In this document: one piece after another, positions 27,287 through 39,486 of the stretch | How the letters are laid out: each line of letters opens with the position of its first letter | Numbering within the stretch: position 1 is the first letter of the stretch | DNA from: a virus | Lineage: Duplodnaviria; Heunggongvirae; Uroviricota; Caudoviricetes | Length of the DNA stretch: 43,152 bases | IMG/VR virus record: IMGVR_UViG_2778261177_000005 | Strand: one strand, 5' to 3' | Notes under the pieces: generated by a model | Told to the model about the DNA's origin: nothing | Database searches by the model: none | The model's input: only the letters and a program-made list of their open reading frames with translations | Made by a program: the position numbers and the translations under genes

Positions 27287-27357
27287 CGTAGTTCTCCGCT
27301 GGCGCAGTAGAATGGGTGTTCAGCCCGTTATGTAGTATAACAGAATTAATGCCAATA

Positions 27358-27609
27358 CTAACAGGATGCTCTGACTCGCAATTCATCCAGCAGTTTATCA
27401 TTTCCCATAATGTCACTTACCCTCATCGGTAAAAAAATTGCCTTTCGACCATTACGATACATCATTGATTTTGGGATTTCAGGGAAGTAATCCATTTCGA
27501 CTATAACTGACAGGTCATCACGACGTATGACTGCGTATTTGCAACTAAATAGTTTCTTTATTTTTTCCACGATGCCTCCGAGTTTATAAGTACAAACGGT
27601 TATATCCAC
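27358..27609 (-). CDS. small hypothetical ORF in AT-rich island
   Basis: 83-codon ORF beginning with GTG; internal GTG with GGAGG RBS would give 70 aa; very AT-rich; may not be expressed. Confidence 0.25.
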   Translation of the reverse strand: MDITVCTYKLGGIVEKIKKLFSCKYAVIRRDDLSVIVEMDYFPEIPKSMMYRNGRKAIFLPMRVSDIMGNDKLLDELRVRASC

Positions 27610-27753
27610 ATAGAGACAAAAATATTAATCTGAAAAATATTTATTTCACGCCGTATATTTGATTATTTAATGTGCAGGTACAATGACTTTTATTTTTTGT
27701 TGTGTATATAATCAAATATATGGTTATTTTTCACCCTGCGCATTCAGCGCGCA

Positions 27754-27776
27754 ACAAAAAACCCGCCGAAGCGGGT
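27754..27776 (-). terminator. intrinsic terminator about 70 nt downstream of hok
   Basis: Minus strand ACCCGC-UUCG-GCGGGU followed by UUUUUUGUU. Confidence 0.6.
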
Positions 27777-27845
27777 TAAGTGCGGGTGCGTTGAGGATGC
27801 CTGACACATCAGAGGTGGCGAGGGATTTCTCCCCCGCCGGGTCTC

Positions 27846-28001
27846 TTACTCCTCAGGTTCGTAAGCTGTGAAGACAGCGACCTCCGTCTGGCCGGTTCGG
27901 ATTCGTACCTCGCAGAGGTCTTTCCTCGTTACCAGTGCCGTCACTATGACGGTAATACAGATGACGATCAGGGCGACTAACATCGCCTTTTGCTGCTTCA
28001 T
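27846..28001 (-). CDS. hok: Hok/Gef-family type I toxin (HokD/RelF-like)
   Basis: 51 aa MKQQKAMLVALIVICITVIVTALVTRKDLCEVRIRTGQTEVAVFTAYEPEE; single TM helix then conserved Cys; RBS AAGGAG; in-frame upstream extension in ORF 27846..28058 in the mok position. Confidence 0.85.
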   Translation of the reverse strand: MKQQKAMLVALIVICITVIVTALVTRKDLCEVRIRTGQTEVAVFTAYEPEE

Positions 28002-28292
28002 AGCCTGCTTCTCCTTGCCTTTCGGCACGTAAGAGGCTAACCTAGATTTGCCGTTCATAGATTGAGCCTCAGATTAATGTTAAGCGTCTTGCAGGACGCG
28101 TAATGTTAACTGGGGCTCTTCTCTATCTGCCTTTTGGTGTTCATGCCCGAGGCAGATAGCCTCAAGCACCCGCAGCAATTTTACTTAACTCCCCTTTTCA
28201 CGCAAACCGTTTTTATCCCCAGCGGCAAATCGAATACACCACCAGCGCCACCGCCATCGCAATTCCTACCGTTGTGAATGCTTCAGGCCAGG

Positions 28293-28976
28293 TCATTGAT
28301 TCACCTCCTGCGGTGGTTCAGGCAACGCTTCCAGTGATGCTTTCACAAACCACGCTGCCTGAACTATAACGCCATGAATCCAGCGCAAATCAGCATCGCG
28401 ATCTTTCTTTTTCATCTTTTCGCCACTTAAAGCCTGGCTTATGTGGCTGCGCACCAAGTCTTCATGTAACTCCTTCGCATCCTCAACGGTGAAACCACCA
28501 GGCAAAAGAGTCGGAGTTACCGGAGAGTTGGTTGACGTTTCCGAGATTTCCCGAAAGTTTCCGGCATGAAGCATGGCGGCGCGGCAGGCGTTCCATGAAA
28601 TTTCCTGAAGGGAACGACGAATCTGTGTGCTGCATATACTCCTCCCTGACTCCTGGCTGTTAAACCATGTTTCAAATTCCGGCACTACTGGTGCTGGTTG
28701 GGTGGTGACATTGGCAAAGGCTGCACGCAACCCTGTCTTAATTTCCTCTACCTCATCAGCGCCTGGCGATGAATCTGACAGTGCGCGATGGAATGCGTAA
28801 GCCATGTCGTCGTTGATTTCTACAGGCACACTATCAGCCTTGCGGCGCTCCTGTAGCTCGCGCAGAGCCGCTGCAACATAATGACTATTGTGCTGGTCAG
28901 CCCACAGAATGAGCCGAATCAACGTTGCATTTGAAACGTATTCGTCTGTTAGTTTGCTATTGGTAAAAGTGGTCAT
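28293..28976 (-). CDS. hypothetical protein
   Basis: 227 aa; ATGA overlap with the HNH gene; no motif recognised. Confidence 0.5.
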   Translation of the reverse strand: MTTFTNSKLTDEYVSNATLIRLILWADQHNSHYVAAALRELQERRKADSVPVEINDDMAYAFHRALSDSSPGADEVEEIKTGLRAAFANVTTQPAPVVPEFETWFNSQESGRSICSTQIRRSLQEISWNACRAAMLHAGNFREISETSTNSPVTPTLLPGGFTVEDAKELHEDLVRSHISQALSGEKMKKKDRDADLRWIHGVIVQAAWFVKASLEALPEPPQEVNQ

Positions 28977-34024: not shown

Positions 34025-34444
34025 ATGGAAAAAGAAAACGAAAAAATTGCCGCTAGTAGGCTCAATGACAAAATTGCAATGCGTCTTAAAGAGCGCAGGC
34101 AGAAGCTTGGTTTATCTCAAGGAAAACTTGCTGAAATCTGCGGATGGACGCAATCGCGTATAGGTAACTATGAGGCGGGCAGCAGAAATGTTGGAGTGCA
34201 TGACGCTGTCGTATTGGGAAAGGCACTTGGCATATCTCCTCCTGAGCTCCTCTTTGGAGAACAGGAATCTTCTGAATTGTGGTTAAATGAATCCCAACGA
34301 AAACTTCTTGAGTTGTTTAACCAGCTACCGGGCTCAGAACAACAACGAATGATTGAGCTATTTGAAGTCCGGCTAAAAGAAATCGATGAGTATGTAGAAA
34401 AATATTTGAGAGGCAGGCTTAAAGATAATCCCCCACCGGAGTAA
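34025..34444 (+). CDS. prophage repressor, HTH XRE-family (RacR/CI-like, no peptidase domain)
   Basis: 139 aa; HTH RQKLGLSQGKLAEICGWTQSRIGNYEAG; RBS AAGGA; divergent from the cro-like gene; followed by a terminator. Confidence 0.75.
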   Translation: MEKENEKIAASRLNDKIAMRLKERRQKLGLSQGKLAEICGWTQSRIGNYEAGSRNVGVHDAVVLGKALGISPPELLFGEQESSELWLNESQRKLLELFNQLPGSEQQRMIELFEVRLKEIDEYVEKYLRGRLKDNPPPE

Positions 34445-36357: not shown

Positions 36358-39300
36358 ATGAGCACCGATAAACAAGTTTACCCACTGTATTACGAAGCAA
36401 AAAATGACAAAGTAAGAAAACGTCTCGGTATTAAAGGCGGTTTCTACTGGGCTGAAGCGAAAAAATTATCCATTGCCATCTCCCGTGGTGCTGTTGCGAT
36501 TGACGATGCTGGCTACGATGAAGATGACTTTAAAAAACCTGTTCGCGTCAATTTGCCCGTTGTTGATGACCTTCCACCAGAAGGCGTATTTGATACGGAA
36601 TTCTGCAACCGTTACGAAAAAGGCGGGGAAGATGGCATCACAATGGTATTTATCGCGCCCTCATCCTCTGCGCAGGACAAACCAGCCAGCACTGACAATA
36701 CCAATGTTAATGGCGAAGACATGACGGAGATTGAGGAGAATATGCTACTCCCGATTTCCGGTCAGGAGCTGCCCATTCGCTGGCTTGCTCAACACGGCAG
36801 CGAAAAACCGGTAACGCACGTTTCACGCGACGAACTACAGGCATTACACATTGCACGAGCTGAAGAACTACCAGCTGTTACTGCCCTGGCTGTTTCCCAC
36901 AAAACCAGCCTGCTCGACCCGCTGGAAATTCGCGATCTCCACAAACTGGTGCGTGATACTGACAGAGTTTTCCCTAATCCAGGCAATTCAAGCCTGGGGC
37001 TGATGACTGCTTTTTTCGAAGCATACCTGGACGCAGACTACACCGATCGCGGTCTGCTGACAAAAGAGTGGATGAAAGGAAATCGTGTTTCATGCATCAC
37101 GCGCACGGCTTCCGGCGCTAATGCTGGCGGCGGGAACCTCACCGATCGCGGCGAAGGTTTCGTTCACGATCTGACGTCACTGGCGCGCGACGTAGCGACT
37201 GGCGTACTGGCTCGTTCAATGGACGTGGACATTTATAACCTTCATCCGGCACACGCTAAACGTGTCGAGGAAATTATCGCTGAAAATAAACCGCCCTTTT
37301 CTGTTTTCCGCGACAAATTCATCACCATGCCTGGCGGGCTGGATTATTCCCGCGCCATCGTGGTTGCGTCCGTAAAAGAAGCACCAATTGGGATCGAGGT
37401 TATCCCCGCACACGTCACTGAATATCTTAACAAAGTTCTGACTGAAACTGATCATGCCAACCCTGATCCAGAAATCGTGGATATTGCCTGCGGTCGTTCC
37501 TCTGCCCCGATGCCGCAGCGTGTAACAGAAGAAGAAAAACAGGATGATGAAGAAAAACTGCAACCATCTTGCGCAATGGCAGATGAACAGGCAACGGCTG
37601 AAACAGTGGAACCGGATGCAACTGAACATCATCAGGACACGCAGCCGCTGGATGCTCAGTCACAGGTAAATTCTGTTGATGCGAAATATCAGAAACTGCG
37701 GGCAGAACTCTATGAAGCCCGGAAAAACATTCCGCCCAAAAATCCTGTCGATGCAGACAAATTACTGGCTGCCTCTCGCGGAGAATTTGTTGAAGGGATT
37801 AGCGACCCGAATGATCCGAAATGGGTTAAGGGGATCCAGACCCGCGATTCTGTGTACCAGAATCAGCCAGAAACGGAACAGAACGACCCAAATACGCAAC
37901 AAAACGAGCCAGAAACGAAACAGCCTGAGCCAGTAGTGCAACAACAGGAAACGGAGAAAGTTTGCACCGCCTGCGGTAAGGCTGGCGGCGGCAACTGTCC
38001 TGACTGTGGCGCGGTGATGGGCGACGCAACGTATCAGAAAACCTTTAATGAAGAAAATCAGAATGAATATCAGGAAAAAGGTCTGGAGGAAATGGAAGGT
38101 GCTGAACATCCGCACAAGGAGAACGCTGGCAGCAATCCGCATTGCGATTGCAGTGATGAAGCTGGTGAAACGACAGCACCTGTAGTAACTGAAATCATGT
38201 GGCCGTCATATTTCGAGCCTGGCCGCTATGAAAACCTCCCGAACGAGGTTTATCACTCCGCCAACGGAATAAGCAGCACAATGCTGAAGGATGCCCGCAT
38301 CAGCCTGATGTATTACCACGGACGGCACATTGCCGGAACTATTCCGGGCGAGGAAAGTGATGCATTGCTGCGTGGGCGGATTATTCACAGTTATGTTCTG
38401 GAAACGGATAAATTCGCTGATGAGTATGCCATTCCGGTACCGGTTCCTGAATATGTGGTTACTACTTCTAACGAACTGATCGCCATCATTAAAAAACACA
38501 ATGCCAGTCTGCCAGCACTGATGACACCAGAGCAGATGAAAGAGTGGATCGAAAGCTACAACAGCACTCTTATACAGCCACTGTCGGTAAGTGCCGGGGC
38601 CGAAGAAACAGGCATCCTTTACGGTTCGCTTCCGGAGGAATTCCGGCGTATTCCTGAGGGGGAAAAACACACAGCATCAGCAATGAAAGCCTGTATTAAA
38701 GAATACAACGCAAGCCTCCCTCCTCTGCTGAAAGCCAGTGGAACACGAGAGCAGCTCCTGGAGCAAATTGAAACTGTAGATCCAGAACTGGCAAAAAAAG
38801 AACGTGCTAAATCTTTGCCTTACAACATCAGTGGCACAAAAGAGCAATTAACCGAAATCGCCCGGAAAATTCGCCCGGAACTGGTAACACTGGAGGACTG
38901 GCAAAAACGCCAGCAAGAAGAACACGCCGGGAAAACGTTTATCAGTCCGGATATGTATGAACAGGCAAAAAATATTCACGCAGCACTGCAAAACAATACT
39001 GATGCAGCAAGGCTACTCAACCACCCGGATCGCAAATCTGAAATCAGCTATTTCGGGTTTGATGAAGAAACCGGGCTGGAAATCAGGGTCCGTCCTGATA
39101 TCGAAATCCGGCTGCCATACGAAAGCATTTGCGCCGACGTGAAGTCAGTCAGCCTCGGTTATGTGCGACAGGAACGACTGAAAGATCGCCTGCACCGTGA
39201 AATTATTGAACGTGATTATCACCTCAGCGCAGCAATGTATTGCGATGTGGCAAACCTGGACAAATTTTTCTGGATCTTCGTCAACAAAGATGCTGGCTAT

Positions 39301-39486
39301 CACTGGGTGGCCGTCGTGGAAGCCTCGCAGGAACTCCTGGAACTTGGTCGACAGGAATATCGCCGGACACTACGACAGATAAACGAAGCTCTGGAGACAA
39401 ACAACTGGCCAGCACCGATTACCGAAAGTTATACCGACGAATTAAACGACTTTGATCTTCGTCGTCTTGAAGCACTGAGCATCTGA
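36358..39486 (+). CDS. exodeoxyribonuclease VIII-like recombination exonuclease (RecE-like), enlarged
   Basis: 1042 aa; central region (...[40 protein letters not shown]...) resembles Rac RecE as I recall it; zinc-ribbon [16 protein letters not shown]; divergent N- and C-terminal parts. Confidence 0.7.

Follow-up and report, generated by a model that had tools for sequence, protein, structure and literature searches.

A Rac-like Lambdoid Prophage with a Probably Intact hokD/hokW-Type hok/mok/sok Cassette in Its nin-Equivalent Region

Introduction

We examined a 1006-bp stretch (positions 27287..28292) of IMG/VR record IMGVR_UViG_2778261177_000005, a Caudoviricetes DNA of 43,152 nt that is called the window throughout. 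An initial annotation, prepared from the letters of the DNA, had described the stretch as an AT-rich island of low coding density in the nin region that carries a Hok-family type I toxin, and its reading as a Hok-family type I toxin locus is supported by the present analysis. Positions 27752..28205 very probably hold an intact and complete hok/mok/sok type I toxin–antitoxin (TA) cassette of the hokD/hokW subfamily, with the toxin side (hok and the overlapping mok frame) on the minus strand and the antisense RNA, Sok, on the plus strand. The type of locus is already known: it is a member of a described and experimentally studied family and no new kind of element. Our sequence analysis establishes that each sequence element of the cassette is present, intact, and conserved; we infer expression, toxicity, the ends of Sok, and the biological role of the window copy by homology to hok/sok of plasmid R1 and to hokW-sokW of 933W/Sp5.

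Results

The toxin gene hok lies on the minus strand at 27846..28001 and encodes 51 amino acids (MKQQKAMLVALIVICITVIVTALVTRKDLCEVRIRTGQTEVAVFTAYEPEE). A Shine–Dalgarno (SD) sequence, AAGGAG (28011..28016), is located 8 nt upstream of its start and bears out the good ribosome-binding site that the initial annotation had given this Hok/Gef open reading frame (ORF). The translation matches Pfam PF01848 HOK_GEF (E = 1.5e-23, 82.6 bits against a cut-off of 22) and PHROG 251, "MokW-like host killing" (E = 7e-33). It is 96% identical to K-12 HokD/RelF (49 of 51 residues), 88% identical to HokW, and 43% identical to R1-type Hok, and residues C15, T25-R26-K27, L29-C30-E31, and R33 are invariant in the comparison with these three proteins. 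The features of the Hok/Gef family, namely a toxin ORF of ~50 aa, an N-terminal membrane helix, the TRK..LCE..R pattern, and two cysteines, are all found here, with both conserved cysteines and the TRK..LCE motif retained. We looked for a disruption of the Hok ORF and found none; the locus is free of frameshifts, stop codons, and insertion sequence (IS) insertions.

A reading frame of 70 codons in the mok position (27846..28058, minus strand) is in frame with hok, as had been noted from the outset. Its ATG at 28058 is preceded at a distance of 8 nt by its own SD, GAGG (28067..28070), and 19 codons (MNGKSRLASYVPKGKEKQA) come before the hok ATG. This lead has the same count of codons as that of R1 mok and mokW, and mokW of 933W has the same layout. 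Conservation was assessed in two samples of phage contigs, collected with different conserved anchor strings (~117 and ~135 copies) and conditioned on exact anchors; the mok ATG is unchanged in all 135 phage copies. The overlapping frame with its own SD is what is expected of mok, and by analogy with the characterized loci translation of hok may depend on that of mok.

A weak promoter for hok and mok is predicted at 28178..28205 (minus strand). It was read from the sequence as a −35 element TTGCGT (28200..28205), a spacer of 16 nt, and a −10 element TAAAAT (28178..28183), followed by 6 nt to the predicted 5′ end of the transcript. R1-type loci carry TATGAT at this position, just before GGCGCTTGAGG. 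Across ~100 phage copies the segment from −10 to +1 is well conserved and the DNA further upstream is not. The predicted full-length mok-hok mRNA has ~420 nt (27752..28171, minus strand) and extends from the 5′ end GGGUGCUUGAGG to the U-tract past the terminator. Its predicted 5′ end coincides with model position 1 of an Rfam RF01794 match, and conservation among the phage copies drops outside the limits 27752..28171. The intrinsic terminator (AACCCGCUUCGGCGGGUU followed by UUUUUUGUUG; 27752..27777, minus strand) comprises a GC-rich hairpin at 27760..27777 and a T-run; it is the downstream terminator hairpin that had been recognized earlier, and it is kept in K-12 hokD.

We folded the mRNA in its full-length and 3′-truncated forms. 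The minimum-energy fold of the 420-nt form has −177.7 kcal/mol (z = −8.0 relative to shuffles, none of which folded as well). In this fold the 5′ end GGGUGCUUGAGG, which belongs to the tac element (GGGUGCUUGAGGCU; 28158..28171, minus strand), is paired with CCUCAACGCACCC (27784..27796) of the fbi element (UCCUCAACGCACCCG; 27783..27797, minus strand), located 49 nt past the hok stop codon. The part of the leader complementary to Sok (28050..28120, minus strand) takes in ucb, a long hairpin, the mok SD, and the mok ATG. In the full-length form the mok SD is paired with ucb (about 28114..28120), and the stretch around GAGCCCC is its partner in the fold; both elements are given the roles known from R1 (PMC9841398). 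Once the mRNA is shortened at its 3′ side, the 5′ end makes a local hairpin of mRNA nt 1–29 (28143..28171, minus strand), formed by tac and the segment just downstream, in agreement with the metastable structure described for R1.

The long-range tac/fbi pairing of the hok/sok family is found in the window copy by minimum-energy folding, by duplex energies, and by covariation. The fbi element forms a duplex of −21.5 kcal/mol with its own tac, versus a mean of −16.6 kcal/mol with the tac of other subfamilies. A pattern joining the sok-promoter spacer to the hok SD (AGCCTCTTAC-N12-AAGGAGAAG), run against a collection of species-representative genomes, retrieved 58 DNA stretches, mostly from Enterobacterales, and most of these have a recognizable Hok ORF, R1-type toxins included. 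Across Enterobacterales hok loci and subfamilies tac and fbi covary: the pair reads GGGTGCTCTGGATC / GATCCATGAGCACCC in Serratia, GGGCGCCTGAGGC / GCCTTCAGGCGCCC in one uncultured Enterobacteriaceae metagenome-assembled genome (L007), and GAGAC / TCTC in Kluyvera (L036). The fbi element lies 41–57 nt past the stop codon in 38 of 42 loci. In a test with 14-nt tac segments the cognate tac gave the best or tied duplex in 29 of the 42, several of the failures being due to crude tac extraction.

A sub-threshold Rfam match to Salmonella isrK (27756..27837, minus strand; E = 4.8e-4 and 30.5 bits, the cut-off being 50) covers the stem-loop of the hok 3′ untranslated region (UTR), fbi, and the terminator. 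We rejected this identity because IsrK is found downstream of antQ in Gifsy-1 and its paper makes no mention of hok, and because no isrK match occurs beside the Salmonella homologue of the AT-rich gene described below. The match is judged to be a likeness of two hairpins rather than homology.

The leader is matched by Rfam RF01794 over the full model (1–157) with 106.7 bits (gathering score 59, E = 1.4e-24). This score and the z value of the mRNA fold are well outside the reach of chance. The matching segment, 27996..28171 on the minus strand, is 176 nt of the hok-sense strand that begin with the 5′ end of the mRNA and run up to the start codon of hok; it does not correspond to the ~71-nt antisense RNA. 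The model amounts to a description of the hok-sense leader, the true antisense RNA has to be on the opposite strand within the match, and automatic annotation from this "sok" model would give the antitoxin the wrong strand and the wrong limits.

The Sok promoter is located on the plus strand at 28015..28043 and consists of a −35 element TTGCCT (28015..28020), a 17-nt spacer, and a −10 element TAACCT (28038..28043). The whole promoter is contained in the mok frame, and the −35 element overlaps the hok SD. Alignment shows both hexamers and the spacer to be identical to those of 933W sokW; the pair ttgcct/taacct, offered in the initial annotation as a possibility, is therefore base for base the sokW promoter. 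Among the phage copies this promoter is almost unvarying (diversity 0.047). In a "promoter-less" construct in which the sokW −10 element TAACCT was replaced by means of primer YO-421, antitoxin activity was lost (Takada et al., PMC8621323).

A Sok antisense RNA of ~71 nt is predicted at 28050..28120 (plus strand), with coordinates transferred from the annotated 933W sokW and correspondingly approximate ends. It would present a 14-nt single-stranded 5′ tail (GCCGUUCAUAGAUU) over the mok ATG, a long hairpin (28064..28118) over the mok SD, and a U/C-rich 3′ end; the predicted fold has −33.7 kcal/mol (z = −5.4). At the level of sequence this is a cis-antisense gene with its own promoter and complementarity to the mok initiation region. 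Sok had first been placed around 28010..28110, correctly opposite the hok leader; given limits of 28050..28120, that interval took in the promoter and most of the RNA and missed the rest. The alignment with characterized loci that had been suggested along with this placement was run; it positions sok by transfer from 933W and shows tac and fbi to be identical in the two.

Column diversity in the two phage-contig samples reveals hypervariable blocks flanking the mok ATG (28045..28066). Block 1, which comprises the 7 nt that separate the mok SD from its ATG, has a column diversity of 0.33, and block 2, 11 nt over mok codons 2–5, one of 0.38. The rest of the transcript has a mean column diversity of 0.03–0.08, and the third codon positions of hok have 0.037. 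The two blocks represent nt 1–17 of Sok together with their target and are seen in both samples. Thirteen distinct Sok 17-mers occur in the ~135 phage copies; the window allele (mok MNGKS) is the commonest and differs from each other allele at 5–9 of 17 positions.

The remaining features of the stretch are best described in their genomic setting. It is preceded on the same strand, in this order, by a YdaT-like gene, a replication gene, and genes for a DnaC-like loader, DUF1627, DUF977, Ead/Ea22, an HNH endonuclease, and a 227-aa ORF without a Pfam match. After the stretch come DUF1367 and YbcO/DUF1364 genes and, further on, a DUF1133 Q-like gene, ORF6N, and a holin gene. A helix-turn-helix repressor gene is divergent at 34025..34444. 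The gene order and the divergent repressor gene identify the stretch as the nin-equivalent region of a Rac-like lambdoid prophage, which agrees with the nin-region placement made at the start, and hok has the same direction as the early-right operon. Pfam and PHROG searches of the nearby proteins found no RelB/RelE-type neighbors, again as initially reported. Elsewhere in the window, a 1042-aa ORF (36358..39486, plus strand) lies in the early-left region and is followed by 350-aa and 358-aa ORFs near the right end.

A base-composition profile limits the AT-rich part to about 27300..27750 (GC 0.32–0.39), and the hok cassette has a GC of 0.49–0.55. An AT-rich part thus exists, but the toxin is outside it. 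The description of the stretch as one of low coding density was likewise overstated: ORFs (the 70-aa gene described below, mok/hok, and a 27-aa ORF) fill about half of the 1006 bp, and the remainder is mostly hok mRNA leader and 3′ UTR.

By megablast, the right half of the stretch is matched in 111 phage records; of 5426 complete E. coli genomes, 4737 contain it, and the NCBI name for the ORF is hokD. The complete 1006-bp arrangement is present in 143 E. coli genomes. The 1006-bp query matches 11,769 places in E. coli genomes, mostly over the hok half, and the number of such places per genome has a median of 2 and a maximum of 10. One phage record, PP818812.1 ("Actinobacillus phage vB_Apl-pPE4", L002), is 97.2% identical to the window across the full 1006 bp. 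Its gene order is that of the E. coli prophages (DUF1367-type, hok, Ead/Ea22, and replication genes), and its host label, Actinobacillus pleuropneumoniae, looks doubtful.

The 83-codon ORF in the AT-rich part (27358..27609, minus strand), whose status the initial annotation had left unclear, is a real and independent gene, probably of 70 aa (27358..27570, minus strand). The GTG start of the 70-aa form lies 4 nt past GGAGG (27575..27579), and the frame is open to 27609, which gives the 83 codons. In most homologues the first residue aligns with residue 14 of the 83-codon ORF, and the 70-aa form is also the one annotated by the NCBI pipeline PGAP in an E. coli prophage of 97.7% identity. The protein matches PHROG 1813 (E = 6.4e-35, residues 5–83 versus profile positions 3–81 of 91), a small family of small, unannotated proteins with 23 representatives among 1.8 billion proteins in an exhaustive profile search. 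Temperate phages of Salmonella, Citrobacter, Klebsiella, and Aeromonas encode homologues with 29–56% identity. Those of Salmonella and Citrobacter are in a nin-like position, just upstream of a DUF1367 or Holliday-junction resolvase gene, and the records of these phages that we examined have no hok gene annotated beside the homologue. About 3.3 kb further downstream of its homologue, Citrobacter phage Chris1 has a clear Rfam match to the small RNA isrI (L006:5561-5657, plus strand; 69.9 bits, the cut-off being 45).

For a function of the 70-aa gene, searches of Pfam and PADLOC gave no match, and NCBIfam gave only a chance match of 13.8 bits. A word-indexed homologue search returned only close E. 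coli and Shigella relatives. An AlphaFold2 model of the protein (predicted local distance difference test score of 86) has a helix, four strands, and a helix and finds no meaningful match among the solved structures of the PDB. We also considered K-12 Rem, which has the same length (83 aa) and position as the AT-rich ORF, and rejected this identity, as BLASTP gave no alignment at E ≤ 100.

The slot after the hok terminator was compared in 134 hok copies. It holds the 70-aa gene in 11 copies and Rem in 31, and 64 of the 134 are without any of the query proteins (70-aa gene, Rem, DUF1367, YbcO, HNH, and 227-aa ORF). The slot (window 27358..27750; L004:2625-2876) has alternating fillings, Rem of 83 aa and the PHROG 1813 protein of 70/83 aa. 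The hok terminator and an AT-rich spacer of ~180 nt lie between hok and the AT-rich gene, and the two are independent cassettes. Within the spacer is a 19-nt imperfect inverted repeat (27651..27669 and 27705..27723, 89% complementary, arms 35 nt apart), which might serve the gene downstream as an operator or form an RNA hairpin for it; the repeat is conserved in ten related copies that are too alike to inform on function. Two plus-strand promoter sites in the spacer were treated as chance, shuffles giving an expectation of 2.0 for the 2 found.

At the other end of the stretch, an unannotated ORF encodes a hydrophobic peptide of 27 aa (MTWPEAFTTVGIAMAVALVVYSICRWG; 28213..28296, minus strand). 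Its ATG and the stop codon of the 227-aa gene upstream overlap as ATGA, and its own end lies directly ahead of the hok promoter. Of 105 phage copies, 27, with 933W among them, have the ORF intact upstream of hok with mostly conservative changes; it has no family match in Pfam, PHROG, PADLOC, or NCBIfam. It is probably a real small membrane protein, and it stands outside the TA mechanism.

Discussion

The cassette can be interpreted in the light of experiments on its closest studied relative. HokW of Sp5 arrests growth, sokW expressed from its own promoter prevents this arrest, and RNase III and Hfq each make a partial contribution (PMC8621323). Both hokW and sokW RNAs are present in the Sp5 lysogen, where the sokW transcript is visible on northern blots, and after mitomycin C treatment sokW vanishes and HokW appears in the inner membrane in a RecA-dependent manner, ~1 h before endolysin (PMC8621323). 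Deletion of hokW-sokW delays growth arrest and halves the phage yield (PMC8621323).

By homology, the window copy would work as follows. The weak promoter would yield a stable mok-hok mRNA of ~420 nt that is initially locked, with the 5′ tac paired with the 3′ fbi and ucb lying over the mok SD. Slow trimming from the 3′ end would take off fbi and open the mRNA, exposing the Sok target and the mok start, whose translation would be needed for that of hok. Sok, a short-lived opposite-strand RNA of ~71 nt, would then use its 5′ tail to pair over the start region of mok and stop translation of mok and hence of hok, and RNase III would cut the duplex. Were Sok synthesis halted by prophage induction, loss of the element, or shut-off of host transcription, Sok would decay first; the leftover mRNA would be translated, and the 51-aa Hok would enter the inner membrane and depolarize or kill the cell. 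In this prophage, the role that we consider most likely by analogy with hokW-sokW is to hasten growth arrest and lysis once the prophage is induced, and with them the release of phage. Because hok is co-oriented with the early-right operon, transcription upon induction would read hok in its sense direction and meet the sok promoter head-on; a contribution of such transcription to the loss of Sok is speculation.

It is rather unlikely, though still worth weighing, that the cassette works but has its main role elsewhere, either in addiction (killing of cells that lose the prophage) or in abortive infection against phages that shut off transcription. R1 hok/sok stabilizes plasmids by post-segregational killing, the 933W annotation of hokW reads "prophage maintenance", and R1 hok/sok is reported to lower T4 plating (Pecota and Wood 1996, as cited in later work). 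The sole experiment on a prophage copy of the subfamily points the other way, with phage release increased by the locus and lysogen growth unaffected (PMC8621323); the absence of a matching PADLOC model also speaks against defense but says little. Roles in addiction or defense and in lysis are not mutually exclusive.

Several observations weigh against an active cassette. Many chromosomal hok loci of E. coli K-12 are inactive, and K-12 hokD is without the whole leader, having lost mok and sok along with it. A consensus promoter scan flagged neither the hok nor the sok promoter, which match the consensus at 3+5 and 4+3 of 12 positions, respectively. The minimum-energy fold of the 3′-truncated mRNA is without the tac/ucb and SDmok/dcb pairings published for R1. 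In addition, transcription, toxicity, and antitoxin activity of the window copy are predictions from its DNA sequence and from homology, and its role is taken from a 933W homologue that sits at a different genomic place and opposite to its neighboring operon. The window locus might on these grounds be a decayed, nonfunctional relic like most K-12 chromosomal copies, passively carried along. We regard this as very unlikely, as all elements are intact, with no frameshift, stop codon, or IS insertion, and its promoter and SD regions match those of the experimentally active hokW-sokW exactly or almost exactly. Moreover, the transcript is strongly constrained in the 117–135 phage copies (diversity 0.03–0.08), and its mok ATG is invariant.

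Also very unlikely, and the least probable reading, is that the AT-rich 70/83-codon ORF is a functional partner of hok (a second regulator or immunity factor) and the 1-kb stretch a single unit: the two are adjacent and co-oriented, and the pair is kept in 11 sampled loci (70-aa gene 93–100% identical at the amino acid level) and in the 143 E. coli genomes, but the Salmonella and Citrobacter homologues occupy the same nin position with no hok annotated, most hok copies of the subfamily carry Rem or other DNA in the slot, and the terminator, the ~180-nt spacer, and a sharply different base composition set the two apart.

For the intact, working cassette that we favor, the hypervariable Sok tail has two possible explanations. 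Constraint on this segment may be relaxed, in line with the unimportance of the Mok peptide sequence in R1, or diversifying selection may keep co-resident copies from neutralizing one another. The diversity of the blocks is several-fold above that of third codon positions, which tentatively favors the second explanation over relaxed constraint. We advance, tentatively and with more doubt than conviction, the combined idea that the first 17 nt of Sok and their target are a swappable specificity cassette under diversifying selection, which gives separate antidotes to the prophages of polylysogenic E. coli, and that co-orientation in the nin region may drive head-on transcription into the sok promoter and so release Hok. 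If this were true, loss or induction of one prophage would not be masked by the Sok of another. The evidence on the Sok tail is the hypervariability itself, and selection, insulation, and promoter interference are speculative proposals. A search of the accessible literature found no paper on a hypervariable Sok tail, which is not proof that it is undescribed.

Taken alone, the locus carries little weight because it is one more intact copy of a known and studied type. A hypervariable Sok tail in an otherwise frozen transcript nevertheless offers a simple handle on cross-talk between co-resident hok/sok copies. The locus also exposes an annotation gap, in that genome records show the toxin only and leave Sok RNA, mok, and the 27-aa ORF unannotated.

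Relation to Characterized Systems

Among characterized loci, hokW-mokW-sokW of 933W/Sp5 (AF125520; Takada et al. 2021, PMC8621323) shares 91.5% DNA identity with the window over 27774..28292 and has been shown by experiment to be a type I TA. In both, the toxin is 51 aa long and mok is an in-frame reading frame of 70 codons; the sok promoter, hok SD, tac, and fbi are identical; and the extended Sok hairpin, the 71-nt Sok, and the 27-aa upstream ORF are found in both. They differ at 6 of 51 toxin residues, mostly C-terminal, and at 6 of 17 positions of the Sok 5′ tail and its target, where mok reads MNGKS in the window and MLNTC in 933W. The 3′ terminator region of 933W is unlike that of the window. 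The setting differs as well: in 933W the locus is close to the right genome end and runs against the direction of the tail genes, whereas that of the window is in the nin-equivalent region and co-oriented with the early-right operon.

K-12 hokD (relF) of the Qin prophage encodes the closest toxin and has the same 3′ UTR, fbi, and terminator as the window. Like the window locus, it lies upstream of a Q-type antiterminator gene of a lambdoid prophage and has a small gene in the AT-rich slot downstream. That gene is rem, which has no similarity to the 70-aa gene of the window. K-12 hokD is truncated, similarity breaking off inside the hok SD ~15 nt ahead of the ATG of hok; its leader, mok start, and sok are replaced by relBE, whereas the window has the full leader and sok without relBE. 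The arrangement of the relBE-hokD operon is accordingly absent from the window, where a 227-aa ORF and an HNH endonuclease gene stand upstream of a full leader.

With hok/mok/sok (parB) of R1, the reference system, the window shares the architecture and the order of elements: tac, ucb, mok SD, mok (19 codons before hok), sok promoter, hok, and fbi. In both, the sok promoter overlaps the hok SD region, and the spacer AGCCTCTTAC-N12-AAGGAGAAG is common to the two. The mok frame of the window is in frame with hok, with 57 nt between the two ATGs, whereas R1 mok is out of frame with hok, as follows from the R1 coordinates T117/G118 and G176. Relative to the family consensus, the window Sok has a 16-nt insertion at the top of its hairpin. 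The Hok proteins of the window and R1 are only 43% identical, and the window copy is phage-borne, whereas that of R1 is plasmid-borne.

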